This document shows positions 4,746-54,359 of a stretch of DNA of 62,028 nt, piece after piece. The translations under genes were made by a program, and so were the position numbers. Position 1 is the stretch's first letter, and every line of letters starts with the position of its first letter. Location: assembly GCA_043801155.1 (NCBI GenBank), contig JAZDMI010000020.1:1-62028 (forward strand), written 5' to 3'. This DNA is from Candidatus Gottesmanbacteria bacterium. GTDB taxonomy: Bacteria; Patescibacteriota; Microgenomatia; JAMCYU01. Under the pieces are notes generated by a model that did not search any database, was not told the DNA's origin, and saw only the letters and a program-made list of their open reading frames with translations.

Positions 4746-4746
4746 A

Positions 4747-6261: not shown

Positions 6262-6367
6262 ACTGCTTACCGTATATTGAAATTATTCTCATCTTATATT
6301 AAAGAGTTATTAATGTAAAGAATTATTAGAAAAATATTCAACTATCAATAAAAAATTTCGGCTATCT

Positions 6368-7999: not shown

Positions 8000-9911
8000 A
8001 TTTGATTTCTTTTTGTTTATTTTTATAACATTCCCTGGCATTCTCAGCCAAATAAAAATACGGTTCGGCTGCAGATTGATCATCATTAATGATTTTAAAT
8101 AATTCCTGTTCGGCTCTTAGGCAATTACCTTCTTTGGTGTAAATAAAACTTAGGTATAAACGCGAGTCAATATCTTGAGGGTTATATTTAAGTGCTTGCA
8201 GGAAAAAGGATTTTGCTTGAGAGACCTTATCTTCTGATAATAGATATAAACCCGTCCTCGAAGCTCCAATTTGATAGATATTAATTACCTCAGATAAAGT
8301 TGTTGGGCGAAACCATTTTAAAATACCAGCTAGAGGACTATGATATCTAGCCCAGGTTTTTTCGTTAACGGCAATTATTTGTTCGATTGGTGGCTTATCA
8401 TCTTCATGAGCATAAAATCTTACCAGCATACCCGTGGGTACGAGTACACCTGTTTTAAAAAAATCTACAGTATTACTAAAGATAGCTGAGCTTGAAGCAT
8501 TAAGTTCGATAATCTTGGTTAAAAGATTTTTTTCTACTTTTTGAGGCAAAACTAGATCTGGATATTTTTTCCTTATAGACTCTATACCCAATGTCATCGG
8601 TATTAGTCTGACTTTAGGATACTCTTTAAGACAAAAATAAACATATTCTGTATCAAATATTTCTGTATCTCCCGATAGTAATAGTATATCGCCCGGACTT
8701 ACGGTAGCCAATATATCACGTCCTAAGTTTTCAGCAGTAAAATCAGATCTTAAGGCCATAATTTTAGGTACATTACGAATAAAAAGACTCACCGGAATAA
8801 CAAATAAAGAAAGTGTAACAAGAAAACGTATAAATTTTATTTTCGAGAAATCAGCTACTCGTTTAATAAACCAAAATATACCTACTCCTAACAATATACC
8901 GCTAAAAATCAGTTCTGGCAGAACAAAACGACTATACATTCCTAAAATAAATAATTCAGTATTATTAATTGGAAAGCCTAAATAAAAGAGAAATAGTTCT
9001 TCAGCTAAAAGAAGAAGAAAAATCAAGAGGAAAAATTTTCTTTCATGGCGATATAAATAAATTAAACCCGTTATAATAAAAATTATCCACGGCCAACCAA
9101 AAAAACGCGGTATAAGTAGTAATCCATCAAGGATTAATATTCCACGAGGTATTAATCCCATCTGTAGGCTAACCGGGTGACTTAAAAATGTCCCATATCC
9201 CTGTCGAGTAATTAATTTCCAAAAATTTTCTAAGTTAACGGCATTATTCCAGCTAATAACCGGATAAGTTCGTGCAGCTAATAGGATATAAAAGTAGGGG
9301 ATTAAACCTAAGAAAAAAAGAGCAAAGCATTTAATAATTTTTTCTAATCTTTTTTTCTGCCAGTATTTAAAATTGTACTTATATATAAAAAAAATAAAAA
9401 CTGGATAGAACCAGAATGAAAAATGATGATGACTGGCAGACAAACCGGCAATAAAAAAAAATAGGAATACCTTTCTATTATCTATATTTTTCATGATTAA
9501 TATTGTCAGGTATAAAAGAATTATGATAAATAGATTATTAAGAGAAAATACTTCGGGGACAGAGGCATATAACCAAAAGAGATAAGAAAATGCCATAGTT
9601 GCTGCACCTATAATGCTGGCCAGTTTACTTTTTGTTAGTTGCCAAATTATAAGATATATTACGGTTATCGTCCCCGCTGCAGGTAATGATGATAGAAGAG
9701 ACACTCTCCATGCTGGGGTAAAAAGGGGAAGGCTATAAAAAAATCTTCCCAATAACATATAGAGAGGATACCCGGGAGGATGGGGGATACCGCCAACACA
9801 TATTGCTGATACTAAATCACCACCATCACCACCAAAAATACTTTGAGACTGAAAAAGAATAAAAAAAATTGCTGAAAATAAAAAAATAAGTAAGAAATAT
9901 TTCCTTACCAT
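7935..9911 (-). CDS. DUF2723-type GT-C membrane protein with C-terminal TPR repeats
   Basis: The N-terminal GGDGGDLVSAICVGGIPHPPGYPLYMLLG resembles the DUF2723/TMEM260-like signature. It has many TM helices and a TPR-like C-terminus (KAKSFFLQALKYNPQD...). Confidence 0.55.
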   Translation of the reverse strand: MVRKYFLLIFLFSAIFFILFQSQSIFGGDGGDLVSAICVGGIPHPPGYPLYMLLGRFFYSLPLFTPAWRVSLLSSLPAAGTITVIYLIIWQLTKSKLASIIGAATMAFSYLFWLYASVPEVFSLNNLFIIILLYLTILIMKNIDNRKVFLFFFIAGLSASHHHFSFWFYPVFIFFIYKYNFKYWQKKRLEKIIKCFALFFLGLIPYFYILLAARTYPVISWNNAVNLENFWKLITRQGYGTFLSHPVSLQMGLIPRGILILDGLLLIPRFFGWPWIIFIITGLIYLYRHERKFFLLIFLLLLAEELFLFYLGFPINNTELFILGMYSRFVLPELIFSGILLGVGIFWFIKRVADFSKIKFIRFLVTLSLFVIPVSLFIRNVPKIMALRSDFTAENLGRDILATVSPGDILLLSGDTEIFDTEYVYFCLKEYPKVRLIPMTLGIESIRKKYPDLVLPQKVEKNLLTKIIELNASSSAIFSNTVDFFKTGVLVPTGMLVRFYAHEDDKPPIEQIIAVNEKTWARYHSPLAGILKWFRPTTLSEVINIYQIGASRTGLYLLSEDKVSQAKSFFLQALKYNPQDIDSRLYLSFIYTKEGNCLRAEQELFKIINDDQSAAEPYFYLAENARECYKNKQKEIKFNQIYGEKKAASERNLKELEK

Positions 9912-9965
9912 ATAGTCTTAATACCCAATATAAGTAAATTTAGTTGATAATATCACACAATATAA

Positions 9966-9989
9966 GGATTCGGCCATACGGCCGAACCC
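9966..9989 (-). terminator. hairpin downstream of the major pilin gene
   Basis: GGATTCGGCC-ATAC-GGCCGAACCC has a GC-rich stem with one mismatch. The minus strand then reads TTATATT. It lies 28 nt after the pilin stop. Confidence 0.5.
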
Positions 9990-10016
9990 CTATATTCAAT
10001 CTTTGACTATTTATTG

Positions 10017-10436
10017 TTATGGACAGTTACCAGTAGCATTTACGGATCCAGCTTTACCGGTGCTTGAACACCACATCCACACACTATATCCTGCGGAAGT
10101 ATATCTTTTTGATTTTAAACTACCCCAGGTTTTTTGACTTAACGGAGTTCCTGAACCAGCAGATAGGCTATAGGCTCCTCCTCCGGGTGGTACAAATGTC
10201 ATTTTCAAATCACCATTGGTGACCAACTGCTCTTGAGATGTAGCATAAGTTCCCGTTTGAACGGTAGCATAAGCTTCCATTGCTTGAGCAATTTGACCAA
10301 TATCACTTTGAACTTTAGCATCATTAGCTGCATTAATCTTATCAATTGGGTCAAGGGCTACAAATATACCGGCGGCTAAAACAGCCAAAACGGCAATAAC
10401 TACTAGTAATTCAATTAATGTAAAACCTTTTTTCAT
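10017..10436 (-). CDS. type IV major pilin candidate
   Basis: MKKGFTLIELLVVIAVLAVLAAGIF, a strong SD (GGAGGGAGGTG), its own terminator, and a C-terminal Cys pair. Confidence 0.8.
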   Translation of the reverse strand: MKKGFTLIELLVVIAVLAVLAAGIFVALDPIDKINAANDAKVQSDIGQIAQAMEAYATVQTGTYATSQEQLVTNGDLKMTFVPPGGGAYSLSAGSGTPLSQKTWGSLKSKRYTSAGYSVWMWCSSTGKAGSVNATGNCP

Positions 10437-10560
10437 TTTTCACCTCCCTCCTTCGCTCGCCGTAACTTTAGTGAAGGCGAGTCGCGGATACTGTGTTTAT
10501 ATAAAATTATTATCTATATATTCTACTTTGGGCGAGCTTCGTAGGGCAAGCCCTTCGCTA

Positions 10561-11763
10561 TTAAAATGCACTTGTTAATTGATAGATTGGCATAATAATG
10601 GCAAAAATCAAAAATCCTACACCAACCCCTAATACAACCATTATTATTGGTTCAATGGCAGTTGTCAAGCCCTTGACGGTTTGGTCAGTTTGAAACTCGA
10701 AATAACTCGATAGTTTAAGAAGTGCTTCGTCTAATTTACCGGTCTCTTCGCCGACTTTTGTCATCTGGCTGACAATCGGCGGAAAATCAGGATTTTGACC
10801 TAATGGTATTCCTAATGGAAAACCTTTTTCTACTTCAGAAGCGGCATCTTTTAGAGCTTTCCTATAAGTAACGCTTTCCATCGAATTGGAAACAATATTT
10901 AAGGCTTCAAGAATCGGCAGTCCTGCCCCAACTAAAAGACCTAATGTTCGAGTAAATTCAACCATCATTGTTTCTCTTTTTAAGGGCCCGATTAATGGAA
11001 GGTTCAGAGTAAAAGAGTCCAGTAATTTTTCACCTACTTTAGTTTTGCTTCCATAAATAAAACCAATAACTGCACCGATTGTCCCGATAATTATCAACCA
11101 CCAAAAATTCACAAAAAAATCAGATACTGCCATTAACAAGAGTGTTGTCCATGGAAGATCAACATTAAAATCTTTATAAAGACCAGTCATTTTGGGTATA
11201 ACCATGGTCATCATAATAAAGAAAACTCCAATCATACCAATGATAATAATTACCGGATAAACCATGGCTCCCTTTATCTTGCCACGGAATTCTCTCTCTT
11301 TTTCTAAATTATCGGCTAACCGATTTAAAACCCGGTCGATCATACCGGCTGCCTCTCCCGCCTTTATCGATGATATATAAATCCTGGAGAAATATTGCGG
11401 ATATTTTTCTAAAGCCGAGGCAAAATTATTACCGGCTTCTATCTCATTTAAAATGTCATCAACCATATTAAGCATTGCCTTGTGTTTGGATTGCTGACCG
11501 AGAATTGACAGGGCTTCAGTTAAAGTTAAACCGGCAGCTACCATAGTAGCTAATTGCCTAGTAAAATTAACTATTTCGGAAAAACCAACTCGATCAAAAG
11601 TATATTTAAAAACATTTAACGGCGAATCAATAATTGGCTTTATATCAATTATTAAAAAATTTTGATCTCGAAGAACTTTAGCCGCATCTTTTATAGAACG
11701 TGCTTCGACTGTACCAATAAGCGATCTGCTTTTTTGATCTTTGACACGATATTTAAAAAACAT
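10561..11763 (-). CDS. pilC: type IV pilus platform protein PilC / GspF family
   Basis: 400 aa with two GspF-type repeats and three TM segments. It sits next to pilT and pilB. Confidence 0.9.
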   Translation of the reverse strand: MFFKYRVKDQKSRSLIGTVEARSIKDAAKVLRDQNFLIIDIKPIIDSPLNVFKYTFDRVGFSEIVNFTRQLATMVAAGLTLTEALSILGQQSKHKAMLNMVDDILNEIEAGNNFASALEKYPQYFSRIYISSIKAGEAAGMIDRVLNRLADNLEKEREFRGKIKGAMVYPVIIIIGMIGVFFIMMTMVIPKMTGLYKDFNVDLPWTTLLLMAVSDFFVNFWWLIIIGTIGAVIGFIYGSKTKVGEKLLDSFTLNLPLIGPLKRETMMVEFTRTLGLLVGAGLPILEALNIVSNSMESVTYRKALKDAASEVEKGFPLGIPLGQNPDFPPIVSQMTKVGEETGKLDEALLKLSSYFEFQTDQTVKGLTTAIEPIIMVVLGVGVGFLIFAIIMPIYQLTSAF

Positions 11764-11766: not shown

Positions 11767-12828
11767 CTAACCCCTTCGACCTAGTAAAAGCCGATCTAGT
11801 TCATCAGGTCTTATGGCAAAATTTTGCGCGACAGTCTTTTCTATTTTGCCACTCTTTACTAACCGAGCAAGGGTATTTTCTAGTAAAAGCATCCCCAGCT
11901 CGCCTGATGTTTGAATAATATTGTCAATCAGATGTGACTTTCCATCACGAATAGTACTCTTGACAGCTGGCGTGGCAATGAGGATCTCACAAGCGGGAAT
12001 ACGTCCTCCATTAATAGCCGGTAGTAATCGCTGCGAGAAAATCCCTTCAAGTGTCCCTGCCAGTTGCATCCGGACTTGGGCTTTTGAATGTTCGGGGAAA
12101 ACGTCAACAATACGATCAACCGTTTGGGCAGCAGAATTGGTGTGTAAGGTTGCAAAAACAAGGTGTCCGGTTTCAGCAATCGTTAAGGCCGCCGCAATTG
12201 TCTCGTAATCACGCATTTCGCCAATTAAGACAACATCCGGGTCTTCACGTAAACAAGATCGTAAAGCCACATCCCAGGAATGAGTATCAAGGTGCATTTC
12301 TCGTTGTGAGATGATTGATTTCCCTCTCGGGTATACATATTCGATTGGATCTTCGATAGTAACAATATGGGTTGCTCTTGTCTGATTAATTTCATTTATT
12401 ATGGCTGACAGCGTCGTCGATTTCCCGTGACCGGTTGGTCCGGTTACTAATATAAAACCCTGGCGGAGTGAAGCAAAAGTATGACAAATAGCCGGTAAAT
12501 TAAGTTCATCAATTGCACGAATTTTAAGAGGTATTAACCTAAAAGCCGCCGTCATTCCCGCCTGTTGAAAATAAACATTGACCCGAAAACGCGCCTCTTT
12601 TGTTGCATAGGAAAAGTCTAATTCTTTATTGGCTAGATATAATTCTTTTTGTTCCGATGTTAAAATTGAAAAAATTAGGTGTTCCGCCTCTTCTGGCGTA
12701 ATGATATCTTTATCAATTAGTGCTACTAATTCACCATCAACTCTAAGTGTTGGTTTATTCCCGACAATAAGATGTAGATCCGAGGCATCTCTTCTATTAG
12801 TAATATCTAAAAGTTCAAGAATATCCAC
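11767..12828 (-). CDS. pilT: twitching-motility retraction ATPase PilT
   Basis: Walker A GPTGHGKST, Asp box, a His box-like region, and a PilT-type length of 353 aa. Confidence 0.9.
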   Translation of the reverse strand: MDILELLDITNRRDASDLHLIVGNKPTLRVDGELVALIDKDIITPEEAEHLIFSILTSEQKELYLANKELDFSYATKEARFRVNVYFQQAGMTAAFRLIPLKIRAIDELNLPAICHTFASLRQGFILVTGPTGHGKSTTLSAIINEINQTRATHIVTIEDPIEYVYPRGKSIISQREMHLDTHSWDVALRSCLREDPDVVLIGEMRDYETIAAALTIAETGHLVFATLHTNSAAQTVDRIVDVFPEHSKAQVRMQLAGTLEGIFSQRLLPAINGGRIPACEILIATPAVKSTIRDGKSHLIDNIIQTSGELGMLLLENTLARLVKSGKIEKTVAQNFAIRPDELDRLLLGRRG

Positions 12829-12853
12829 AGTAACCTCCTTTAAAATTTAAAAA

Positions 12854-14557
12854 TTAATCTTGGGCTACCCTAAGCACTTCACTAATCGTCGTTATTCCTT
12901 CAATCGTCTTAAGGTAACCATCTTGCTTCATAGTTATCATACCTTCAGCTACGGCTTGTTCTTCAACATTAGCAGCTGAAGCATGTTCTAATACTAGTCT
13001 AGCAATTTTTTCTGATACTGGCAAAACTTCAAATACACCAACACGTCCTAAATATCCAGTTTGATTACATTCCTGGCATCCTTTGCCTCGATAGAATTTC
13101 CCATTAAAGGAATTAGGAAATAATTTACCAAGAATGTTTTTAAAATCATCAATCATCTCTTTTGTCGGATCATAAGTTTCTTTACAGCTGGGACAAATTT
13201 TACGGCAGATTCGCTGACCAACAACAGCATTTAAACATGACGCAATCAGATATGGTTCGGCATTCATGTCAAGTAGCCGGGGTAGGGCAGTTGAAGAATT
13301 ATTAGTATGTAAAGTCGAAAAGACCAAATGTCCTGTTAGTGCTGCCTGAATTGCTAAGCCGGCTGTTTCACCATCACGAACCTCACCGACTAAAATAATA
13401 TTAGGATCTTGTCTTAAAAATGCCCGTAGTCCGGTGGCAAAGGTTAACCCGGCTGCGGGATTAATTTGGACCTGATTTACTCCGGCAATTTGATACTCGA
13501 CCGGATCTTCAAGAGTAACAATATTTACCTGAGTGGTATTTAATTTTGATAAAACAGCATATAGGGTTGTCGTTTTACCAGATCCAGTAGGTCCGGTTAC
13601 CAAAATAATGCCGTGAGGTCGAGAGATAGCCGTCTCTAAGTTTTTTAAGGCAATACCTCGCAACCCCAATTCAGGTAAAGATGGAATTCCGCCAGTTTTT
13701 TTAAGTAACCTCATGACTACCTTTTCGCCATTGGATGTGGGTAAAGTTGAAATACGAAGGTCAACTTCATCCTGTCCCATTTTGAAATTGAATCGTCCAT
13801 CCTGGGGAATCCGACGTTCATCAATCTTCATATTGGAAAGAATCTTTATCCGTGAAACAACTGCATCATGAACACTTTTAGGCAGAGCTAATTTTTCATG
13901 AAGAATACCGTCGATCCGGTAGCGGACACGGGTTTTCCCTTCTCCGGGCTCAATATGAATATCGGATGCTCGGCTTTTAACAGCAAATTCTAAAAGGGTT
14001 GAGACAATTTTAGCAATTGGAGCTTCTCTAATGATTTCACCTAACTTCCCGGCTTCAACAGTTCTGATTGTGGGGACGATTCTTTCTTTTAAGGCTGCAC
14101 TAACCTCGGTAGCTAAACTTTGACTATATTGTTCTTCAATTATTGTCTGAATTTCTTCAGGCATGGCTAAAAAGGGTTTGATTTTTTTAGCCGATTTTTT
14201 TTCAACAAATTCAATTACTTGTAGATCTAGAGGATCAGCCATCGCCACGCTTAGAACATTTTTTTGGCTATCTAAATCAAAAGGAACTAATACATAGCGA
14301 CGTGCTACCGCTTCAGGAATATAAGTTAATATATCAGGCGAAATACCTTTTCCCAGTAAAGAAACATAGGGGAATCCAAAAAGATGGGCTTTGGCTTGAG
14401 CTAATTGCTCGGGTGTCGCCAGTTTCTTACGAACAATGATTTCTTCAACCGATGCCCCGGTATTAATACTCTCAACGTTAGCCTGTGAAGCAATGTCATT
14501 ATCAATGACTCTATCTTGAACCAGAATATCAGCTAATGATTGAGCAGTTTTAACCAT
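12854..14557 (-). CDS. pilB: type IV pilus assembly ATPase PilB / GspE family
   Basis: N-terminal GSPII domain, Walker A GPTGSGKTT, and a tetracysteine CPSC...CQEC motif. Confidence 0.9.
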   Translation of the reverse strand: MVKTAQSLADILVQDRVIDNDIASQANVESINTGASVEEIIVRKKLATPEQLAQAKAHLFGFPYVSLLGKGISPDILTYIPEAVARRYVLVPFDLDSQKNVLSVAMADPLDLQVIEFVEKKSAKKIKPFLAMPEEIQTIIEEQYSQSLATEVSAALKERIVPTIRTVEAGKLGEIIREAPIAKIVSTLLEFAVKSRASDIHIEPGEGKTRVRYRIDGILHEKLALPKSVHDAVVSRIKILSNMKIDERRIPQDGRFNFKMGQDEVDLRISTLPTSNGEKVVMRLLKKTGGIPSLPELGLRGIALKNLETAISRPHGIILVTGPTGSGKTTTLYAVLSKLNTTQVNIVTLEDPVEYQIAGVNQVQINPAAGLTFATGLRAFLRQDPNIILVGEVRDGETAGLAIQAALTGHLVFSTLHTNNSSTALPRLLDMNAEPYLIASCLNAVVGQRICRKICPSCKETYDPTKEMIDDFKNILGKLFPNSFNGKFYRGKGCQECNQTGYLGRVGVFEVLPVSEKIARLVLEHASAANVEEQAVAEGMITMKQDGYLKTIEGITTISEVLRVAQD

Positions 14558-19434: not shown

Positions 19435-22005
19435 ATGGATATCGGTAAAATACAACCAACGGAAATAACCACTGAGATGCAGTCGTCATACCTTGACTAT
19501 GCCATGTCGGTTATTGTGTCACGGGCTTTACCTGACGTTAAAGACGGTCTAAAACCAGTCCACCGCCGAATTCTTTATGCCATGCATCAACTGGGTTTAA
19601 CCCATCAAGCTCATTTTTCTAAATCAGCCAAAGTGGTTGGTGAGGTCTTAGGAAAATATCATCCTCATGGAGATATGTCTGTTTATGATGCCTTGGTCAG
19701 ATTAGCCCAAGATTTTAGTATGCGTTATCCCTTAGTTGAAGGCCAAGGTAATTTTGGTTCAGTTGATGGTGATCCACCGGCGGCGATGAGGTATACCGAG
19801 GTTAGATTGGCAAAAATCAGCCAGGAGATGCTGATTGATATTGATAAAAAAACTGTTGATTTTATCCCAAATTTTGACGCGACATTAGATGAACCGGTCT
19901 TTTTACCGGCTAAATTGCCCAATTTACTGCTGATGGGTTGTGAGGGCATTGCGGTTGGTATGGCGACCAAGATTCCAACTCACAATTTAGGCGAAGTTAT
20001 TGATGCTTTAGTTTTCATGATCGATAAAGCCAAGATAGACAGTGGTACACAGATAGCTGAAAGCCAAAATAAAAACAGAACAAAAGATAACCCTGTCACC
20101 GCTAACAGCTCACTACCGACAGCTGTCTCATTTGATATTACCATCGAAGATTTAGTGGAGTTTATTAAGGGTCCAGATTTCCCAACCGCCGGTACTATTT
20201 ATAATATTACGGAAATTATTGCCGCTTATGCTACTGGAAGAGGCCGAATAGTTATCCGTGGAAAAGCAGAAATTGAGGATGTCGGTCAAGGTAAATCAGC
20301 AATTATTATAAATGAATTGCCATATCAAGTTAATAAGGCATTATTAGTGGCCCATATTGCCGATTTAGTTAAAGACAAGAAACTAGAAGGAATTTCCGAC
20401 CTTCGAGATGAATCTGATCAGCGAGGTATTCGAGTTTATATCGAGCTTAAACGAGACGCCCGACCTCAATCAGTGTTAAATAACTTATATAAGCATACTG
20501 AATTGCAAACGGTTTTTCCGGTTAATATGGTAGCTCTGGTTGATGGAACGCCGCAAACATTGACTTTAAAGATGATCCTCGAAGAATATTTAAAACATCG
20601 CCAGAATGTGGTCAGAAAAAGATCAGAGTTTGAGTTAGCCCAAGCCAAAGCCCGCGCCCATATTCTTGAAGGTTTAAAAATCGCTGTCGACCATATTGAT
20701 GAAGTTATCCAAACGATTAAAAGAGCCAAAGATGCGGATGAGGCTAAGATTAATTTGATGACAAAGTTTAAATTGACTGAAATTCAGGCAACAGCAATTT
20801 TAGATATGCAGCTTCGCCGTCTGGCAGCCCTTGAACGACAAAAGATTGAAGATGAATATCAAATGGTCAAAGAAACAATTATCTATCTTGAGGATTTGCT
20901 AGCTCATCCGGAAAAAATTCTCAAAGTTATCAAAGATGAGTTGAATTATATTAAAGAAAAATATGCTGATCCAAGAAAAACTCGCGTGGTTAAAAGCAAG
21001 GTCGGCGAATTTAGTGACGAACAGTTAATCCAAAAAGAGACAACTATTATTACGATTACGACCAGTGGCTATATTAAGAGACTCTCACCTCTCTCATTTA
21101 AAACACAAGGCAGGGGTGGTAAGGGTGTTATAGGCATGACAACAAAAGAAGAAGATAATATTGATCACTTTTTGTTTACAAATACTCATGAAAATATCCT
21201 ATTTTTCACCAATAAAGGTAAAGTTTATCAGTTAAAGGTGTGGGATATCCCTGAAGGAACAAGAATCAGTAAAGGTCAGGCAATTGTGAATTTAATCAAT
21301 GTCGAACAAGGAGAAAAAGTTTCCTCTGTTTTAACTTACAACGAAAAATCTAATGTAAATAAATTTATCTTCTTAACCACAAAAGGCGGAACCGTCAAAA
21401 AGACAGATATTAATGACTTCACTAATATCAGACGTAATGGACTCACGGCCATTAAATTAATTTCCGGCGATGAACTCTGTTGGGCTAAATTAACTGATGG
21501 TAACTCCGACGTTATTTTAATTACCAATGACGGAAAAGGCATCAAGTTTAATGAAAAGCAAGTCCGACCAATGGGCCGGGACACCATGGGAGTGAGAGGA
21601 ATCCTGATTAAGAAACCTGCCCGCCAGCCTAGTGCAGGCTTGGCAGGCGGGAATGATCGAGTTATTGGTATGGATGTTATAGGTGATCCAAAGGCAAATC
21701 TTTTAGTAATTATGGATAAAGGAATTGGGAAACGAAGTCCTTTATCTGATTTCCCTAAACAGGGCAGGGGAGGAATGGGAGTAAAAGCATGTGAGGTAAC
21801 TGCGCGTACCGGAAAGGTTGTCTCGGCACAAATTATTCCAGAAGAAACAGATACCTGTATTTTGACTTCGTGTAAAGGTCAAGTAGTCAAGGTGAATATT
21901 AATCAAATTCCCAAACTATCGCGAGCAACACAAGGGGTTATTCTGATGAGATTTGCCGACCCCAAAGACTCATTAGCGGCGGCTACTTGCATGACAAAAG
22001 AATAA
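19435..22005 (+). CDS. gyrA: DNA gyrase subunit A
   Basis: [12 protein letters not shown], a QRDR-like HPHGD, the active-site region AAMRYTE, and C-terminal beta-pinwheel repeats. Confidence 0.97.
21616..21651 (+). repeat. GC-rich palindromic element inserted in frame in gyrA
   Basis: CCTGCCCGCCAGCCTAGTGCAGGCTTGGCAGGCGGG pairs CCCGCC/GGCGGG and AGCCT/AGGCT. It encodes [12 protein letters not shown]. The same termini occur at 49254-49294 and 53612-53653. Confidence 0.8.
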
Positions 22006-22041
22006 ACTTTCTTCATTATTCATCATCTATTGACATACTTG

Positions 22042-22067
22042 TATATGATATATTAATATATCATATA
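22042..22067. promoter_or_regulatory. perfect 26-bp palindrome (operator candidate) over the promoter and start codon of the TrpR-like gene
   Basis: TATATGATATATTAATATATCATATA equals its own reverse complement. It overlaps a putative -10 TAATAT (22054-22059), and its last base (22067) is the A of the ATG at 22067-22069. TTGACA lies at 22030-22035. Confidence 0.55.
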
Positions 22068-22456
22068 TGACCCACGTATCGAAGAAAAAATTGTCCGAAC
22101 AGACTTTCGAAGAAATAAAGAATACCTTTCTTCTTGTCCTTACCGAAATTAATAATAAACAGGCAATGAGTGAATTTTTAGATGTCTTTTTATCTACGAC
22201 CGAAAAAGAGATGCTGGCCAAAAGATTAGCGATAATTTATCTATTAGACAATGGTATTCCTGAAACAAATATTGCTCAATTACTTCATGTAACCCAATCT
22301 ACAGTCTCGTTAATGAAATTAAAATATGAAAACAATCAGCCGGGTTTTCAATGGGCAATTAGCCAAATAAAAAAACAAAAGTTATTACAGAATATCGAGA
22401 TATTAGCATTGCGCTTCGCCAAATACGCCGTCCGTGCTTCCGGTGGAAGAATATGA
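22067..22456 (+). CDS. TrpR-related YerC/YecD-family DNA-binding protein
   Basis: LSTTEKEMLAKRLAIIYLL..GIPETNIAQLLHVTQSTVS looks like a helix-turn-helix of the Trp repressor family. Confidence 0.6.
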   Translation: MTHVSKKKLSEQTFEEIKNTFLLVLTEINNKQAMSEFLDVFLSTTEKEMLAKRLAIIYLLDNGIPETNIAQLLHVTQSTVSLMKLKYENNQPGFQWAISQIKKQKLLQNIEILALRFAKYAVRASGGRI

Positions 22457-22464
22457 TATAGTTA

Positions 22465-22490
22465 TATATGATATATCGATATATCATATA
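22465..22490. promoter_or_regulatory. second perfect 26-bp palindrome, 8 nt after the TrpR-like stop
   Basis: TATATGATATATCGATATATCATATA has the same 11-nt arms as 22042-22067; only the central 4 nt differ (TCGA vs TTAA). An extra half-site ATATGATATA lies at 22451-22460. Confidence 0.55.
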
Positions 22491-22570
22491 ATAATAATTC
22501 ACCTCAATTTACGAGAAACTAAACTATCTTCTAGAAGAATATTTTTTACTCAACTAAGTTGCATTTTAAG

Positions 22571-23786: not shown

Positions 23787-24972
23787 ATTATATTATAAAT
23801 AGGGGAGTCTTCCAGGAATAGGCATATAAAGATCAGGTATTAGGCAATAGGGATTAGGCCTTATATAAACATGCATAATTATTTAATTTAAATTAATTAC
23901 ATTAAATAGTGCAAATATAATATTAACAGATTTGACCTCTTCTCCGGAACCAGCCTTGCCTGACGTCGTAAAAGCTTGGTTATACGACATCATAGATAAT
24001 TTATCCTCCGTTGTCAAGTATCAATAAATAACAAGTTTTTACCTGGGTTCCGTAAGAACACGATAAATGTTTATATTCCCGGGAAGAAGATGAAGGTCTT
24101 CTCCAAGACCACGATCATGATTAATGAAACATTCATAATCGTTCTTTACCGAATATAAGATAACATTAGTGTCTTATCCAATATACTTAGGTTTCTAGAA
24201 GCTTACACGACCTTGTGTATTTAGATTGTTAATATGCTCTAAATATATAATTTCGTGCGTAGATAAGTATGTCATTAATAAGGAAATATTCAATAGCTAG
24301 AGCATAATGGCAACTTAAACTTGTATAATTGTGGCCAATTATTATCGTTATACTGTAATTAATTATATATCCTGGTTATAGAGAGGTTTCGGTTTTTTTA
24401 TGGTCTAGTACTAAGAATGAATTTAGAGCATAACAATGCCATAAATTAATATTTTTGAGGCTAACGTAAAATATAATGACATATGGAAATTATACGAATA
24501 TAGAGCGTATTAGCGTGATAAGCAACTAGTTTCGAGGTCACAAATATAACGCCGATATAATTATCCCCAGCACCCGAAGCATGTAATTGCTGACTAAACT
24601 ATGTTTTTTAATATCAAGCTTATTTAGCTTGTCAGGACAAGATAAATTATCGTTTTTGTGGCTAATATATTTGGAAAATAATAATGGTATGAAGATGCAG
24701 AGCATAATAACGAGCTATATTAATATTTTTATGCGTAAATTTGGTGTTCATTTCATCGCAAGGTCAGAAGAGTGCGCTTGCGGTGAACGTAGAAACCGTG
24801 AAAACAATTCCCGAATCCCGTGAAAAGAGTAGTAAGAAGTTATTCCGCGTGAGTTATCCACAACGCGTCTAAATTACTATAGGTTAGTATATTCAAATGA
24901 CTTAACTATATCAAACTATATCTTGCCACTTCCCTCTTCCCCACCACCAAGTCCAATTTTTTTGATATGATC
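23787..24972. other. ORF-free AT-rich region with DnaA-box-like words and an iteron-like motif (candidate origin, or dif/terminus locus, or RNA gene)
   Basis: No credible ORF. A perfect TTATCCACA lies at 24854-24862, with several one-mismatch boxes. The AGAGCATAA-type word occurs five times. Confidence 0.3.
24233..24707. repeat. cluster of five AGAGC(A/G)TA(A/T) words
   Basis: Copies at 24233-24243 (minus), 24298-24307, 24422-24433, 24501-24510 and 24698-24707. Confidence 0.7.
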
Positions 24973-34499: not shown

Positions 34500-34620
34500 A
34501 GGGAAATATTACATCATTCTTGTTCTTTTGTCACCTTGATACTTCGATTATTTCAGTATCAAGCCTGATTATTTCGCAGGCTTGACATTATCTGTTAAAC
34601 TGTTCAGTATTAATTTATAC

Positions 34621-34703
34621 CGCCCCTCAAGATGTCGAGCTTACAGCGAGACCGAATTGAGGAAAGGTAAAAGGAGCATTCGCCGAAGGCGAAGCGGACT
34701 TAT
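34621..34703 (+). repeat. structured intergenic element, copy A
   Basis: CCTCAA-GAT-GTCGAGCT-TAC-AGCGAGAC-CGAA-TTGAGG, then an A-rich linker, a TTCGCC-GAA-GGCGAA hairpin, and GGACTTAT. Confidence 0.75.
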
Positions 34704-35150: not shown

Positions 35151-35161
35151 ATCTTTTATTT

Positions 35162-35282
35162 CGCGCCTCAGAATGTCAACTTTACAAGTTGACCTGAATG
35201 AGGCAAGAAAAAAGGAGCACCTGCAGGAGCGAACTTATTCGAACATCGTGAGAAAAAGGAGCACCTGCAGGAGCGGACTTAT
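35162..35282 (+). repeat. structured intergenic element, copy B (tail module duplicated)
   Basis: CCTCA-GAAT-GTCAACTT-TAC-AAGTTGAC-CTGAA-TGAGG, then two copies of AAAAAGGAGCACCTGCAGGAGCG(A/G)ACTTAT with a 44-nt period. The end overlaps the efp stop codon. Confidence 0.8.
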
Positions 35283-35842
35283 TTATTGATCCTCTGAACA
35301 TATTCTCCGGTACGAGTATCGATTAACACCATATCGCCAATTTCAACAAACAAAGGAACTCTAACTTTAACTTTATTATCCAAAACTGCATCCTTGAATA
35401 TATTAGTTGCCGAATTACCACGATAACCAGGTTCAGTTTCTGCAATTGTAAATTCCATTTTAATCGGTAATTCAATTGTTAATGGTTCATCTTGATAAAA
35501 AACTACTTTAATATTCATTCCTTCTTTAAGATACGAGGCTTGATCTCCTATTTTATCGTTAGATAATTCAAACTGCTCAAAGGTATTTGGATCCATAAAA
35601 ACGAAGTTATTACCGTTTTTATAGAGATATTGTGATTCTTTCTTATCTAAATTTGCTTCCTGAACTTTGGCTCCTGATATAAAAACTTTTTCAACAATTG
35701 AACCACTGCGAAGGTTTTTGATTTTTGTTTTTATTGTCGCTGTGCCGCGGCCGAGCTTAACAAACTCATAATTTAAAACCTGGAAGAGATTATTATCTTC
35801 AGTAAAATAAGCTCCGGCTCGTAAATTTGTAACTGAAATCAT
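35279..35842 (-). CDS. efp: elongation factor P
   Basis: 187 aa with an EF-P-like N-terminus and a KLGRGTATIKTK loop. Confidence 0.93.
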   Translation of the reverse strand: MISVTNLRAGAYFTEDNNLFQVLNYEFVKLGRGTATIKTKIKNLRSGSIVEKVFISGAKVQEANLDKKESQYLYKNGNNFVFMDPNTFEQFELSNDKIGDQASYLKEGMNIKVVFYQDEPLTIELPIKMEFTIAETEPGYRGNSATNIFKDAVLDNKVKVRVPLFVEIGDMVLIDTRTGEYVQRINK

Positions 35843-42520: not shown

Positions 42521-42593
42521 GATATAACATTCTTCGAATGTTTTTCCTTGCCTCAATTCACCTTTGATGTAATCAAAGGATCTTGAGGGGCAG
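42521..42593 (-). repeat. structured intergenic element, copy D (opposite orientation)
   Basis: CCTCAA (42551-42556)/TTGAGG (42583-42588), inner stem CCTTTGAT-GTA-ATCAAAGG, and a CATTC-TTC-GAATG hairpin followed by TTTTT. Confidence 0.75.
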
Positions 42594-42608
42594 AATAAAA
42601 ATTATCAT

Positions 42609-43963: not shown

Positions 43964-44488
43964 ATGAACAAGAAAATATTAAACATAGCGATTAAAAAAT
44001 TCAAGAAACTTAAACCTGAATACAAGGGTTTTATTAATGTGGGAGTCGATAATTGGCGAGGTTTCAGATTTATTTTCGATACACAAGATGTGAGGAATTG
44101 TAAAAACAATTGTTCTGTATGTCCGCTGTATCAAGCATTACGGGTAGAAAAAAAGGGTTTATTTTCTGCCGGTCTATATCCGGCCAGTAAAGAAGATAAA
44201 AAACTGTTTGGTAAGCAAAATTATTTAAATTGTAAAACTTTAAAACAATATCAGAACTGCTATGTTAGTTGGTTAGTCAAAAAAGCAAAAACGAGAAAAA
44301 AAATTGAAGATGAGATAAAGTTAATAAAGAATTTTAGAATTATTTATTCAAATAAGAAAACAAATATAATCAAACAAGAGGTGAGATTTAGACAGGAAAT
44401 AATAAATAAAGTCCTGCAAAATGTTTCCATCAAAAGAAGCAAGCTACTTAAAAATTTATGGTATACTAAAAAAGGAGGAATTTTATGA
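43964..44488 (+). CDS. basic Lys-rich protein with a CX3CX2C motif, unknown function
   Basis: 174 aa containing NCKNNCSVCPLY. Its stop overlaps the start of the HisRS-like gene (ATGA). Confidence 0.4.
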   Translation: MNKKILNIAIKKFKKLKPEYKGFINVGVDNWRGFRFIFDTQDVRNCKNNCSVCPLYQALRVEKKGLFSAGLYPASKEDKKLFGKQNYLNCKTLKQYQNCYVSWLVKKAKTRKKIEDEIKLIKNFRIIYSNKKTNIIKQEVRFRQEIINKVLQNVSIKRSKLLKNLWYTKKGGIL

Positions 44489-45396
44489 AAAGAGGGCCAA
44501 CAACACCAAAAGGCTTTCGTGATATCGATCCGGAGTTAGCCAAAAAAAGACGAACTGTTATAAACAAGATTGCTGAAGTATTAGAGACTTTCGGCTTTGT
44601 TCCTATTGAGACCCCTACTCTTGAATTTGAGGAAACACTTATGGGTAAATATGGCGACGAGGAAAAATTGATTTATCAATTTACTGATCGCGGTGGAAGA
44701 AAGTTAGCTTTAAGATATGATTTAACCGTTCCCCTAGCACGATTTGTAGCCAATAACCTGGGTCTTCTTAAACCATCTTTCTCACGTTTTCAAGTCGGTC
44801 AGGTTTTCCGCGGAGAAAATCCGCAAAAAGGCCGATTTAGAGAGTTTACCCAATTTGACTTTGATACTGTTGGTTCTACCAGTTTAGAAGAAGATGCCAA
44901 AATAATATCCGCCTCAATCACATCAGTCAGAAATTTAGGGCTTAACGAAGCAAAAATGTTAATTAATGACCGACTTGTTTTTAAGGATCTTAAACCAGAA
45001 TATATAAGAGCGATCGATAAATTTTATAAAATTGGCAAGGAGGGAGTAATAACCGAAATGATTGCCAATGGCGCTGATAGTACTTGGGCTAAAAATTTTA
45101 TGTCTTCATTTGATGAATTACAGCTTACTCCAAATTTAAAAATTCTTTTTGATTATCTAAATAATATTGGTTTGGCTAAAGGAAAAGATTATGACTTTGA
45201 CCCTACCTTGGCTAGAGGTTTGGATTATTATACCTCCACCATTTTTGAACTGAAACCAACGGGGAAACCAGACGAGTTATCGATTGGCGGCGGCGGAAGA
45301 TATGATAATTTAATCGGTGTGTTTAGCGGCCGGCAAATTCCCGCCGTCGGTTTTTCTTTTGGTCTAGATAGGTTAATTGAATTTCTAAACAACTAA
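44485..45396 (+). CDS. hisS: histidyl-tRNA synthetase-like catalytic core (no anticodon-binding domain)
   Basis: Motif 2 FRGENPQKGRFREFTQ, ARGLDYYT, GGGGRYDNL and GFSFGLDRL are present. The protein ends 6 aa after the last motif, at 303 aa. Confidence 0.75.
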   Translation: MKRGPTTPKGFRDIDPELAKKRRTVINKIAEVLETFGFVPIETPTLEFEETLMGKYGDEEKLIYQFTDRGGRKLALRYDLTVPLARFVANNLGLLKPSFSRFQVGQVFRGENPQKGRFREFTQFDFDTVGSTSLEEDAKIISASITSVRNLGLNEAKMLINDRLVFKDLKPEYIRAIDKFYKIGKEGVITEMIANGADSTWAKNFMSSFDELQLTPNLKILFDYLNNIGLAKGKDYDFDPTLARGLDYYTSTIFELKPTGKPDELSIGGGGRYDNLIGVFSGRQIPAVGFSFGLDRLIEFLNN

Positions 45397-46648: not shown

Positions 46649-47353
46649 ATGAATCCTAATATAATTATCATTGAAATTCGTGGTGCTGCCGGCGGTGATG
46701 AAGCCAAGATCTGGGCTGATGATCTTGTTCGGATGTATACAAGATATGCCCAAGCGCAAGGCTGGAAAGTTGAATTAATAGATCAGGGAACAATCAAAAT
46801 TTCCGGGACAGATGCTTTCAGTAAATTAAAAATGGAGGGTGGTGTACACCGCGTACAGCGTATACCGGAAACTGAACGCCGGGGTAGAATCCACACATCA
46901 ACCGCTACTGTGGCTGTCTTACCGGAAATTCCGGAAACTCAAGTGTATATTGATCCGGCTGATATTGAGATGCAGGTTTTTCGAAGTGCAGGCCATGGCG
47001 GCCAAAATGTGCAAAAGGTTTCTTCTGCAGTCAGGATTATTCATAAACCAACTGGTGTTATCACAACTTGCCAAACCGAAAGAGACCAATGGCAAAATCG
47101 ACAAACCGCTATGAGTATGCTGCGGGCAAAACTATGGGAGTTAGAAGAAGAAAGAAAAAGATTACGACTATCAGATCTTCGTCAGGTCATTGGCCGAGGT
47201 ATGCGAGCCGAAAAAATTAGGACATATAATTATCCGCAGGATAGAGTTACTGATCACCGAATCAATAAAAGTTTTAGATTGGCTGACGTAGTTGAAGGAA
47301 GACTTGATAAACTTTTATCCTCATTACTCAATCAAATAAATAAACAAATTTAA
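46649..47353 (+). CDS. prfA: class I peptide chain release factor, RF1-like, lacking N-terminal domain 1
   Basis: IEIRGAAGGDEA, RIPETERRGRIHTS (PxT-type tripeptide) and the GGQ motif SAGHGGQNVQK. Only 234 aa. Confidence 0.8.
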   Translation: MNPNIIIIEIRGAAGGDEAKIWADDLVRMYTRYAQAQGWKVELIDQGTIKISGTDAFSKLKMEGGVHRVQRIPETERRGRIHTSTATVAVLPEIPETQVYIDPADIEMQVFRSAGHGGQNVQKVSSAVRIIHKPTGVITTCQTERDQWQNRQTAMSMLRAKLWELEEERKRLRLSDLRQVIGRGMRAEKIRTYNYPQDRVTDHRINKSFRLADVVEGRLDKLLSSLLNQINKQI

Positions 47354-48013: not shown

Positions 48014-49168
48014 TTAACTGCTTGATTCGCCTAACGTTACATTAATCTTTAATTCCTTACCGTTTCTCCAGACAGTTAATTCGAGTGTGTCCCCTACTTT
48101 TTTGCTACTGATAATTTTTGAGACGGCATTATCATCGTCACCAGAAAGTTTTTGATTATTAATTTTAGTCACGATATCTTCTACCTGTATACCTGCTTTT
48201 TCTGCCGGAGAGCCGGTAATTATTTGTACGATATATGCTCCTTCAGGTAAATCGTTCATTAAAGCTAAATCGCGACTAATCATTTTGTAACGTATTCCCA
48301 AATATGGACGACTGAATTGGCCGGTTTTATTAAAATTGCTTAATGAATCCTTGATAACATTAATTGGTAAGGCAAAACCGATATTTTGGCTTCCCTGGGC
48401 CACCGCGACATTTATACCAATTGCCTGCCCCGCGGAATTAAGAAGCGGTCCCCCGGAGTTACCCGGATTAATAGCTGCATCCGTTTGAATCACATTATCC
48501 AACTGTTCGGCGTAGCCTTCAACAGGCGAACCGGCGGTTATTCCTCTGCCTAATCCAGAAACAACTCCGGTCGTAACCGTATTTCTAAATTCTCCCAAAG
48601 CTGTACCAATAGCAATAACAAACTGACCAACTTTTAGATTTGACGAGTCTCCCATTTCAATTGGTTTTAATCCCGAAGCGCTTATTTTAATTATAGCTAC
48701 ATCATTAGCTGGATCACGATAAATTTTTTCGACATCATATTTTTTATTATCTTTAGTAATAACACGATATTTTACCTCTGTTTCAGAAACAACATGTTTA
48801 TTCGTAACGATCAAACCGTCAGCGGTAACAATAAATCCAGTCCCGATATCTTGTTCAATTTTCTGTGGCTGTTGTTCTTGTGGTTGTCCAAATATTGAAT
48901 AGGGGTCGTATGGATCTATCTGGAAAATTTTGCCAACACTTCTTGTCTGGCTAATACCAACAGTCACTACTGACGGCGATACTTTGTCAACAACGTCAAT
49001 CACCATTGATTCTTCATTAACTATCTTTACGGTCTGCCTTTCAAGCCCGGTAGTAGGAGTAGAAAATTTTAGTTTCGACCAGTTCAGGCCTAAAAGACCG
49101 GAAGAAATACCAATACCTATAAGAACTATTAAAACCGATAGTAAAATGGGAGCTTTTTTAAACGTCAT
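48014..49168 (-). CDS. htrA: HtrA/DegP-family serine protease with a PDZ domain
   Basis: TNKHV, DVAIIKI and GNSGGPLLN catalytic triad contexts, plus a C-terminal PDZ. Confidence 0.9.
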   Translation of the reverse strand: MTFKKAPILLSVLIVLIGIGISSGLLGLNWSKLKFSTPTTGLERQTVKIVNEESMVIDVVDKVSPSVVTVGISQTRSVGKIFQIDPYDPYSIFGQPQEQQPQKIEQDIGTGFIVTADGLIVTNKHVVSETEVKYRVITKDNKKYDVEKIYRDPANDVAIIKISASGLKPIEMGDSSNLKVGQFVIAIGTALGEFRNTVTTGVVSGLGRGITAGSPVEGYAEQLDNVIQTDAAINPGNSGGPLLNSAGQAIGINVAVAQGSQNIGFALPINVIKDSLSNFNKTGQFSRPYLGIRYKMISRDLALMNDLPEGAYIVQIITGSPAEKAGIQVEDIVTKINNQKLSGDDDNAVSKIISSKKVGDTLELTVWRNGKELKINVTLGESSS

Positions 49169-49218
49169 AACAGAGAATATTTTTTCAAATAAACCTGAGA
49201 TAATACTTAGAATTATTC

Positions 49219-49328
49219 CGCGCCTCAGAACGTCAATTTCACAAATTGACCTGCCTGCCCGCCGGCGGCATTGCCGCAGGCAAATGCAGGCGGGAATGAG
49301 GCAAGGAAAAAGGAAAACTTGGACTTAT
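49219..49328 (+). repeat. structured intergenic element, copy C, carrying a nested GC-rich palindrome
   Basis: CCTCA-GAAC-GTCAATTT-CAC-AAATTGAC-CTG, then a 41-nt insert at 49254-49294, then AATGAGG and a tail ending GGACTTAT. The end overlaps the ctpA stop codon. Confidence 0.8.
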
Positions 49329-50539
49329 TTTAATAATTCTATGGCTTTCTCAAGTTGAGTGTCTTTTGTCAAATCTTTTTCATCCATAGCTACCTCATAA
49401 TCAGGTTTAATTCCGGTCCCATTAATCCATAATCCTTTTGGTAAAATCCATTTAGCCGTGGTTACGTGTAAACCTGCACCTCCGGGTAAATCTTGGGCTT
49501 CTTGGATTGTACCTTTACCAAATGATGTTTCCCCGACTAATTTTGCCCGATTATGATCTTTAAGTGCTCCGGCGACAATTTCTGATGCCGAGGCTGAACC
49601 TTTATTAATAATGATTATCATGGGAATTGTTAATTGTTTTCCTTGACGATCTACGTTATAGGGTGTTTGTGTACCGCCTGTCTGTTCCTGAAGTACGACT
49701 AATGTCCCTGGTGGTAAAAATTCTCCAGCAATAAAAACTGCTCCGGAAAGATAACCCCCGGGATTATTTCGTAAATCTAGAACTAATCCCTTAATTTTCC
49801 CGGACTTATATTCTAGATCGATTTCATTAATGGCATTTTCCCATTCGGTATTAGTTTGGTCACCAAATTGAGACAATTTAAGGTAAGCGGTATTGTCTTT
49901 TTTTTGCCATTCTACTGATTTGACTGATATTGTATCCCGAGTAACCGAGATATCGATTGCCTTATCTTGACCTTGATGGACAATCGATAAGGTAACTTTT
50001 GAATTACGAGGTCCGCGAATCTTATTAACGGCTTCCGGTAATGTCCAGTTACTAGTTTCTTGACCGTCAACTTTAGCAATCCAATCACCGTTTTTAATTC
50101 CGGCTTTTTCAGCCGGAGAATTTTTTAAAGGAGCGATAACAACAATTTTATTATTTTTAATGCCAAGCTGGGCTCCGACACCGTCAAATTGCCCTCCCAA
50201 ATCTTCTTTTGTTTGCTTTTGTTGTTCCGGGGTTAAAAATACCGTATAGGGATCGTTAAGCGATTGCACCATGCCTGATATGGCACCCCAAACCATTTTC
50301 TGTGGATCTAATGCTTTCTTATCAATATAACTTTTCTCTAATCTTGTCCAAACGTCCCAGAATAAAGAGAAATCAATCTGTCGATTAAGTGGGGCGGTGA
50401 CATTGGTAACCGACATTTTCGGTTTAAAGTTTTGCCAAGATAAAGTAACATCGTTTTTCCCTAAATTGTAACCAATACCACCGATTAAAATTGTAAAAGC
50501 GATTAGAAGAATAATATTTCTAACAAGTCTTAAGGGCAT
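49325..50539 (-). CDS. ctpA: carboxy-terminal processing protease (S41)
   Basis: PDZ region, then GSASASEIVAGALKD. Confidence 0.88.
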   Translation of the reverse strand: MPLRLVRNIILLIAFTILIGGIGYNLGKNDVTLSWQNFKPKMSVTNVTAPLNRQIDFSLFWDVWTRLEKSYIDKKALDPQKMVWGAISGMVQSLNDPYTVFLTPEQQKQTKEDLGGQFDGVGAQLGIKNNKIVVIAPLKNSPAEKAGIKNGDWIAKVDGQETSNWTLPEAVNKIRGPRNSKVTLSIVHQGQDKAIDISVTRDTISVKSVEWQKKDNTAYLKLSQFGDQTNTEWENAINEIDLEYKSGKIKGLVLDLRNNPGGYLSGAVFIAGEFLPPGTLVVLQEQTGGTQTPYNVDRQGKQLTIPMIIIINKGSASASEIVAGALKDHNRAKLVGETSFGKGTIQEAQDLPGGAGLHVTTAKWILPKGLWINGTGIKPDYEVAMDEKDLTKDTQLEKAIELLK

Positions 50540-53216: not shown

Positions 53217-54359
53217 TTAAACATTAAACTTAAATTCCACTACATCCCCATCTTGCATTATATAATCTCTACCCTCTTGCCTAACTTTGCCGGCCTCGGT
53301 ACACTTCTTTTCTCCGCCAAAATTTATATAGTCATCGTAGGAAATTACATCCGCCATGATAAATCCTTTGGTAAAATCGGTATGAATAACTCCAGCAGCC
53401 TGGGGAGCTGACATTCCTTTTTTAATCGTCCAAGCCCTAACTTCCTTTTCGCCGGCAGTTAAAAAAGTCATTAAACCTAGTGTCGAAAATGCTTTTTGAA
53501 TTAGTCTTTCCAGGCCGCTTTTTTCAACTCCCAATTCTTTAAGATAGGATTTCTGTTCCTCCAAAGATAACTCGGCTAATTCAGCTTCTGTCTTGGCCGA
53601 AATCGTAACCACCTGCCCGCCAGTCGCTTGCGCTCTGGGCGCATGCAGGCGGGTCTGATTCTCTAATCCTAATTCTATTGAATACTTTTTTTCAATTTCT
53701 TCGCCTTTTTTTAAATCATTTTCATCTACATTTAAAACGACCAAAATAGCTTTATCTGTTAATAGGCTTAATTGTTTACTGGCTGTTTTTTCTTCATCAG
53801 ACAGGGTAATATCTCTAGCCGTTATCCCTTTGGCTAAACCCTCTCTTAACTTAATTACCGCTTGCCAACGAAATTGATCACTCTTAGTGATAGTTCCCCG
53901 TGGTTCACTTTGTTTTTCCAGAGTTTGTAAATCCGCTAACATAAGTTCAGTTTCCACTGTTTTGAAATCACTTTTCGGCTCAACACTTCCATGTCTGACT
54001 ATGTTGGAGTCAGTAAAGTCGCGGACAACATGAGCAATGGCGTCAGTTTCTCTTATATGTGATAAAAATTTGTTGCCTAAACCCTCGCCTTTTGATGCAC
54101 CGGCAATCAGCCCAGCAATATCCAGAAATTGAACCGTGGCCGGAACCTCGGGAGGAAGATGATCCAATCCTTCGGCCTTCTTTATTACTTCTGCTAACTT
54201 TGCCAGTCGTTCATCAGGAACTGGCACGATACCAATATTGGGTTCTATCGTGGCAAAGGGAAAATTAGCCACATACGCCTGCTGTTTTTTAAGAAGAGCG
54301 TTAAATAATGTAGACTTACCTACGTTTGGAAGACCAACAATTCCTACAGACAAAGACAT
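53217..54359 (-). CDS. ychF: ribosome-binding ATPase YchF
   Basis: GIVGLPNVGKSTLFNAL, and a TGS-like C-terminus. Confidence 0.93.
   Translation of the reverse strand: MSLSVGIVGLPNVGKSTLFNALLKKQQAYVANFPFATIEPNIGIVPVPDERLAKLAEVIKKAEGLDHLPPEVPATVQFLDIAGLIAGASKGEGLGNKFLSHIRETDAIAHVVRDFTDSNIVRHGSVEPKSDFKTVETELMLADLQTLEKQSEPRGTITKSDQFRWQAVIKLREGLAKGITARDITLSDEEKTASKQLSLLTDKAILVVLNVDENDLKKGEEIEKKYSIELGLENQTRLHAPRAQATGGQVVTISAKTEAELAELSLEEQKSYLKELGVEKSGLERLIQKAFSTLGLMTFLTAGEKEVRAWTIKKGMSAPQAAGVIHTDFTKGFIMADVISYDDYINFGGEKKCTEAGKVRQEGRDYIMQDGDVVEFKFNV
53612..53653 (+). repeat. GC-rich palindromic element inserted in frame in ychF
   Basis: CCTGCCCGCCAG...ATGCAGGCGGG is 42 nt. Read on the minus strand it encodes TRLHAPRAQATGGQ. 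Confidence 0.8.

Follow-up and report, generated by a model that had tools for sequence, protein, structure and literature searches.

How did a GC-rich imperfect palindrome of 41 nt come to lie inside another repeat, in the spacer between ctp and htrA on this contig of Candidatus Gottesmanbacteria (the whole 62,028-nt stretch analyzed here is called the window)? An earlier note made from the letters alone had answered that the palindrome is a mobile unit nested in an intergenic repeat, of which a sister copy, copy B, preserves the empty site. The sequence readings confirmed the arrangement. Copy C reads ...CACAAATTGACCTG, then the block CCTGCCCGCCGGCGGCATTGCCGCAGGCAAATGCAGGCGGG, then AATGAGGCAAGG; to the left of the block stands ...AAATTGACCTG, ending ...TTGACCTG, and the right-hand sequence starts with AATGAGG. 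Copy B passes from TTGACCTG directly into AATGAGG (...ACAAGTTGACCTGAATGAGGCAAG at 35186-35207; in a longer reading, of 35155-35290, ...AAGTTGACCTGAATGAGGCAAG). The insertion point claimed between CTG and AATGA is likewise correct, with a shift of one G possible: the block ends in G, as does the host sequence before it, so that the gap in copy C can be placed in two ways that differ by a single base. The features concerned are collected in Table 1.

Table 1. Positions of the palindrome copies, the host repeat copies and the genes around them in the window
Feature	Coordinates	Strand	Remarks
Palindrome copy nested in host copy C	49254..49294	+	CCTG tag and hairpin CCCGCC...GGCGGG; intergenic
Palindrome copy in gyrA	21616..21651	+	36 nt, 12 codons, between K-K and N-D, C-terminal domain
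Palindrome copy in ychF	53612..53653	+ (gene -)	read as TRLHAPRAQATGG(Q)
Host repeat copy A	34612..34700	+	empty, subtype II
Host repeat copy B	35153..35290	+	empty, TTGACCTG|AATGAGG; two 3' modules
Host repeat copy C	49210..49332	+	filled; outer stem CCTCA/TGAGG, inner hairpin GTCAATTT/AAATTGAC, A-rich tract, module ending GGACTTATT
Host repeat copy D	42537..42601	- (opposite strand)	empty, subtype II
gyrA	19435..22005	+	carries a palindrome copy
ychF	53217..54359	-	carries a palindrome copy
ctp (S41 peptidase)	49325..50539	-	stop codon inside the end of host copy C
htrA-like protease	48014..49168	-	downstream neighbor of copy C

The window has a GC content of 36%, and the block therefore stands out from its surroundings. 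Only six places in the window hold 30-nt stretches of at least 73% GC, and three of them, the palindrome copies of Table 1, share the ends CCTGCCCGCC...GCAGGCGGG and are identical there over 10 and 9 nt. With up to three mismatches allowed, the 15-nt left end of the block has four matches in the window, where shuffles predict 0.15, and a looser family pattern matched eight times in ~470 kb of related DNA against 0.5 expected. Chance does produce GC-rich patterns of 19 nt where the GC content is high, and some of the viral matches described below are probably of that kind, but the window itself is low in GC, the counts exceed the shuffles, the copies stem from independent assemblies, and those in coding sequence keep the frame where orthologues are exactly without them; it is therefore hardly credible that the blocks are chance GC-rich sequence or assembly artefacts.

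The host repeat was studied in four window copies and 11 further copies that a strict pattern scan recovered from JGI metagenomes, ten of them from one sample. Its core consists of the invariant outer stem around an inner hairpin of 7 to 8 bp and occurs in two subtypes; downstream of it follow an A-run and then one or two modules ending in GGACTTATT. Compensatory changes were found at seven of the eight pairs of the inner helix, and across the structure 91% of the cells were paired, compared with 73% in shuffles and at most 47% when the partners were slid. Fourteen of the 15 copies (three in the window and 11 on metagenome contigs), from both subtypes and at least two organisms, are empty at the insertion point. 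A covariance model built from these 14 empty copies only matched copy C at 49210-49315 over all 65 model positions (50 bits, E = 2e-8), and since the matched span of 106 nt is 41 nt longer than the model, a single 41-nt insertion was placed. The reverse history, which the earlier note had set against its own, would make the block an ancestral part of the intergenic repeat, lost by deletion in copy B and in the remaining copies. Palindromes are indeed prone to deletion, and only 15 host copies were examined; however, the 14 empty copies are without the block precisely, and similar blocks lie at unrelated sites (gyrA, ychF, rpsF and phage genes), where outgroups show gain. Considering the empty host copies together with the clean gains in gyrA and ychF, we reject the ancestral-and-deleted history, which has next to no chance of being right, and the filled-versus-empty comparison supports a mobile palindrome in a nested insertion.

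Another origin to be weighed is growth in place, with the host repeat as a functional structured RNA and the block as an optional, variable stem of the kind known as an expansion segment. The strong covariation of the inner helix would suit such an origin, as would the predicted DNA fold of filled copy C, in which both host helices are kept undisturbed and the block forms a third, separate hairpin at the junction (-23.1 kcal/mol, z = -4.5). Nevertheless, local growth would not yield 10-nt and 9-nt ends identical to those of the gyrA and ychF copies, and the host repeat is without a match in Rfam, has no fixed orientation relative to the neighboring genes, and is absent from the orthologous spacers of relatives, so we consider growth in place very improbable. 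Searches of Rfam 15, at the gathering thresholds and with E values up to 10, returned no family for the four window copies of the host repeat or for the palindrome, and in a scan of the window tRNA-Leu alone reached threshold. With the covariance model, no further host-repeat copy was found in 403 kb comprising the window and relatives. The host repeat was also considered by eye as an intrinsic terminator and rejected, as it is T-rich before the hairpin and A-rich after it, the reverse of the expected order, on either strand. In copies A and B, GGAAYACTTGGAC of the 3' module is replaced by GGAGC, a small GC-rich palindrome, and GCGGAC; the palindrome is ATTCGCCGAAGGCGAA in A (34676-34692) and ACCTGCAGGA in B (35217-35232 and 35261-35276). 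Either additional palindromic inserts of very small size or stems of variable sequence may be present here.

As judged from sequence comparison, the host repeat is itself an insertion. Gene order is kept in the three nearest relatives (ychF-rpsF-ssb-(rpsR)-x-ctp-htrA), and their ctp-htrA spacers measure 42, 38, and 68 nt and hold no element, compared with 156 nt in the window, where ~112 nt lie between two AATAA motifs directly past the ctp stop codon. The TTA of the GGACTTATT module in copy C is the TAA stop of ctp on the other strand, that of the last GGACTTATT in copy B is the stop codon of efp on the other strand, and the same relation to the stop of a converging gene recurs in L020, L021, L025, and L027. 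The host repeat looks mobile in its own right, with TTAT(T)/AATAA on both sides and the TAA stop of the neighboring gene typically in its end. In addition, L023 is orthologous to window positions 23.7-26.9 kb (~70% identity) and carries a host copy where the window has none. Within that region, an ORF-free stretch of ~1.2 kb (23787-24972) is conserved with L023 1890-3170 and has no Rfam match; it contains four TTATGCTCTAAA-like motifs (24232-24707), one perfect DnaA-box (24854-24862), and three near matches, and it could be an origin-like or RNA-coding region. Two further genes of the window are unusually short: the release factor (46649-47353) has only 234 aa, with PCRF matched from model position 101 on, as do the relatives (226-234 aa), and the HisRS-like protein (44485-45396, 303 aa) is without the anticodon-binding domain that L031, L032, and L034 have.

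GyrA, YchF, and gene order assign the contig to the Microgenomates within the CPR (candidate phyla radiation), nearest to Candidatus Gottesmanbacteria. In two genes of this lineage, the palindrome is a clean, lineage-specific insertion. In GyrA, whose closest homologue is 83% identical, the insert columns hold residues in none of 119 homologues, and the DNA of three relatives reads AAA AAG directly followed by GAA/GGA GAC/GAT, so that the boundaries are exact and free of duplication. In ychF, the insert lies in the GTPase domain between the NVDE and SAK stretches, with a net gain of 39 nt (13 codons); 115 of 120 homologues are insert free at this site, and in the three nearest relatives ...GAC/AGT CAG GTx runs on uninterrupted. 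The insert adjoins a preexisting CAGG (CCTG on the strand of the element), the CAG|GT being common to these three relatives. A 39-nt copy, also in frame, was found in L028 (4006-4044) in a metal-transporter gene, where it occupies the linker that follows the HMA domain of the encoded membrane protein; this locus belongs to a relative that also has the host repeat. Neither repeat family was detected at 13 loci of GTDB genomes reached through Ctp (43-57% identity, 40-53% GC) or at the gyrA loci of the closest relatives (83% amino acid identity), and a scan by GC content was uninformative in the relatives because their base composition is higher. Next to gyrA, a Trp-repressor-like gene (22067-22456) takes the place of the relatives' folD between gyrA and xerD and is bracketed by direct and inverted AT-rich repeats of 37-41 nt (22031-22071 and 22451-22501).

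Four ychF genes of other Microgenomates carry inserts that start at the same nucleotide (CAR R|CCCGCCT) and have other lengths: L033, with a 33-nt perfect palindrome (CCCGCCTCG...CGAGGCGGG); L035, with a decayed version; P0165; and L034, a member of Woesebacteria, with a 21-nt copy flanked by CAGG repeats. L034 also has a 24-nt copy in rpsF, which encodes PASPSLGG, is followed by CCTGAT, and is absent from five other S6 proteins. The five insert-bearing YchF proteins are not each other's nearest relatives. Such recurrence at one nucleotide does not fit untargeted insertion; it calls for preferred sites, for exchange between lineages by recombination, or for an old insert that was lost many times. 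Moreover, the coding copies are read in several frames and stand in both orientations, and therefore what is conserved is the DNA and not a peptide. The interiors of the four copies from this lineage differ strongly, so these copies are either old or drawn from different subfamilies. Translational bypass, suggested by the CAG on both sides of the ychF insert, is not needed: all the coding copies are open, their net lengths are multiples of three, and the gyrA copy lacks matching codons. In relatives, hairpins on the same CCTGCC/GGCAGG motif were seen in L030 (5497-5518, GCCTGCCTGCCGGCAGGCAGGC), where the hairpin encodes the last eight residues of a DUF1801 protein before TAA, and in L009 (6918-6940, CCTGCCTGCCGGCAAGGCAGG). 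As regards the neighborhoods of these genes, the start of ychF in L034 is adjoined and overlapped by an integrated element (3721-10068) that encodes a Prim-Pol, a serine recombinase of 548 aa, and an HTH protein, and an HNH endonuclease gene lies directly upstream of the palindrome-bearing ychF in L033 (2404-2967).

The family extends to phages. A scan of IMG/VR with the two palindrome ends returned 94 stretches; this set shares the ends by construction of the search, and about a dozen or more of the 94 could be chance matches, mainly on high-GC contigs. Contigs of 39-57% GC carry palindromes of 27, 30, 33, or 36 nt, often several per contig. Capsid, SPP1-type portal, and Mu genes mark these contigs as genuine phage DNA, and some copies are intergenic (L107) and many lie in long ORFs. 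SPP1-type portal genes of 77-80% identity provide natural pairs: the 9-codon unit in TS[PARQGLAGG]RHRQ is filled in four and empty in two. Between L110 and L067, whose portal DNA is 98-99.4% identical, the sole unit difference is the 27-nt CCCGCCTGCCAAGCCTTGGCGGGCAGG, which sits between GCCA and TTGAT with its tag included and with neither a duplication nor a flanking repeat. In L073, a copy in the opposite orientation lies one codon away from the PARQGLAGG site; at a third site, the unit PARQALAGE occurs in L067 and L110 and in no other gene of the set, and altogether four sites in one portal gene hold units, in both orientations. The window copies resemble these phage subfamilies, the gyrA copy being the phage 27-mer plus 9 nt and copy C sharing CCTGCCCGCCGGCGGCnTnGCCGCAG with L037. 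In L122 (10046-10099), a phage contig of 41% GC, two identical 27-nt units (CCTGCCCGCCCTTCGGGAGCAGGCGGG) stand head to tail with one more CCTG after them, an arrangement that recalls the CCTGCCTG doublet on the left margin of copy C in the window. The phage contig L107, on which three intergenic 33-nt palindromes are found, encodes two 358-aa ORFs (10459-11535 and 12499-13575) with the N-terminal domain of Mtd (major tropism determinant), and a diversity-generating retroelement may lie near them.

These comparisons demonstrated that members of the family enter DNA as whole units (tag plus hairpin), in either orientation, in coding and noncoding sequence and with no consistent duplication, and that close relatives differ by single palindrome units, indicating recent gain or loss. 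The units are 21 to ~42 nt long and consist of a CCTG tag followed by a hairpin with the foot CCCGCC/GGCGGG; between ends of the consensus CCTGCC(C/T)GCC...(T)GCAGGCGGG lies a variable yet self-pairing interior. Single units gave DNA folds of -11 to -14 kcal/mol (z -1.0 to -2.8). Further filled/empty pairs, which the earlier note had proposed to collect, were obtained at the host repeat, gyrA, ychF, rpsF, and the portal genes, and the target-site consensus expected along with them did not appear, as no consistent target or duplication emerged. AATGA does follow the gyrA copy (21652-21656) as well as copy C, but it follows two of seven sites and is no general target; TCTGA follows the window ychF copy, and AGTTC, CCTGA, CCTGT, and CTTGG were found elsewhere. 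In copy C and at the ychF site, the insertion point has CCTG before it, which gyrA and the portal sites lack, and direct CCTG/CAGG repeats flank only the ychF and rpsF copies of L034. An intergenic setting stood for the block in copy C and fell for the gyrA and ychF copies, which are in-frame coding sequence. The Y1/TnpA-REP type of mobilizing enzyme that had been suggested was not met with either: Pfam searches of ~50 of the 82 window ORFs with at least 80 aa and of 143 ORFs beside phage copies revealed no HUH/Y1 enzyme, transposase, or homing nuclease, and those of 10 L107 ORFs revealed no HUH/Y1 enzyme and no IS transposase. Among the scanned ORFs were XerD-like and serine recombinases and phage genes.

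This result bears on whether a dedicated transposase is needed at all. A real family might spread as filled gene segments pass from one lineage or phage to another by homologous recombination or gene conversion, and slippage between short repeats at its flanks would account for losses; the shared start of the inserts in five ychF genes that are not nearest relatives, with their different lengths, would agree with such exchange, as would the direct repeats around the L034 ychF and rpsF copies, which permit precise loss, and the empty-handed enzyme search in the window and among the phage neighbors. However, recombination cannot seed unrelated sites such as gyrA, ychF, rpsF, the host repeat, and the four portal-gene sites in both orientations, and L110 and L067 differ by one exact unit that no repeat flanks, which makes spread by recombination alone unlikely, although less so than the alternatives treated above. 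Overall, we regard as probable the explanation by which the block is one member of a dispersed family of small GC-rich imperfect palindromes. The comparisons show a discrete secondary insertion: the host element had inserted at the ctp TAA stop, and the block landed in its 3' internal-loop strand, leaving both host helices intact. In this gene-dense, AT-rich genome, surviving copies are found in spacers or in tolerant protein loops, and those in coding sequence have a net length that is a multiple of three and are read through as loops rich in P, A, R, and G. Since no transposase was found, the mechanism is one that we infer, and the mobilizing enzyme is a conjecture. A trans-acting protein would recognize the folded single-stranded hairpin, as suggested by the conservation of foot and tag and by the compensatory nature of the interior changes; candidates for it include enzymes like those of the REP/RAYT and IS200/IS605 systems.

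Among known elements, the closest in form are the REPs, which are imperfect GC-rich palindromes of 20-40 nt with a tetranucleotide at one stem end, a variable loop, and G·T stem pairs, fall into GTAG- and CGTC-tagged superfamilies, and are in some cases mobilized by RAYT/TnpA-REP (Di Nocera et al. 2013, PMC3733652). They occur singly or in tandem, some copies being intragenic, including in replication and repair genes; nesting within other palindromes is seen at times, and neighboring ORFs can receive their stop codons from REP ends (PMC3733652). The elements described here resemble them in size, imperfect stem-loop with variable loop and G·T stem pairs, tetranucleotide tag, single and tandem units, intragenic copies, nesting, and provision of stop codons (here by the host-repeat ends). 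They differ in that the tag is CCTG in all window copies and in L028, with neither GTAG nor CGTC flanking the stem, and in that the hosts are a CPR bacterium and phages, in contrast to the Proteobacteria-dominated set of the REPs (PMC3733652). A large share of the copies known here is intragenic, and no RAYT was found among the ~50 of 82 window ORFs scanned. REPs are present in many copies per genome, mostly extragenic and downstream of genes; the 62 kb at hand contain three copies, two of them intragenic. Considering the absence of the defining GTAG and CGTC tags, we did not file the element as a member of the REPs. In what Di Nocera et al. (PMC3733652) say of them, the Rickettsia RPEs are selfish palindromic repeats that lie in frame in essential genes of a reduced genome and are tolerated as loops. 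The likeness lies in the in-frame insertion absent from orthologues, as met with at gyrA, ychF, and L034 rpsF. Elements of the RPE-1 type measure roughly 100-150 bp, and the blocks of 21-42 nt found here are shorter and belong to a different lineage.

The GC clusters of yeast mitochondria and related hairpin elements are short GC-rich palindromes that have invaded an AT-rich compact genome, where they lie in spacers and occasionally in genes and vary in presence between close relatives; to our knowledge, they have no dedicated enzyme, and some mitochondrial inserts are skipped by the ribosome. GC-rich hairpins that enter the spacers and genes of a compact AT-rich genome are common to both cases, but the mitochondrial clusters are organellar and different in sequence, and the coding copies found here are all in frame and open. 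Palindrome-associated elements derived from IS200/IS605 resemble the present units in that they make no target duplication and depend on a hairpin with an adjacent tetranucleotide. Their two subterminal hairpins are unlike each other, and integration takes place 3' of a fixed tetra- or pentanucleotide; the units here have one hairpin, with CCTG ahead of the insertion point at some sites (copy C and ychF) and not at others (gyrA and the portal genes). MITEs, which have terminal inverted repeats and a target-site duplication of fixed length, are set apart by the absence of such a duplication at gyrA, copy C, and the L110/L067 site. Literature searches, both for the palindrome end sequences and for elements of this kind in CPR bacteria and in phages, brought up no relevant paper. 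It is conceivable, although we think it rather doubtful, that the palindromes form an undescribed, horizontally spreading class of mini-elements common to CPR bacteria and phages, still active, as the one-unit difference between two 99%-identical portal genes would suggest. Such a class would insert in frame in essential genes through an enzyme or mechanism so far unconnected with elements of this type, and the ychF recurrence would be a homing-like site preference.

Rickettsia and a small number of REP-rich bacteria are the main known cases of small palindromic repeats lying in frame in essential genes. The same behavior is now found in a streamlined CPR genome (gyrA and ychF; in a relative, rpsF) as well as in structural genes of phages, and the element ends are nearly identical across very different hosts. 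These ends offer a sequence handle for genome searches for the missing mobilizing activity, and the natural filled/empty pairs allow the chemistry of insertion to be defined. According to the nested arrangement, two unrelated small elements have moved in this lineage. For annotation, the findings serve as a warning that loops rich in P, A, R, and G in CPR and phage proteins, as well as GC islands in spacers that are otherwise AT-rich, need not be adaptive and can consist of selfish DNA.
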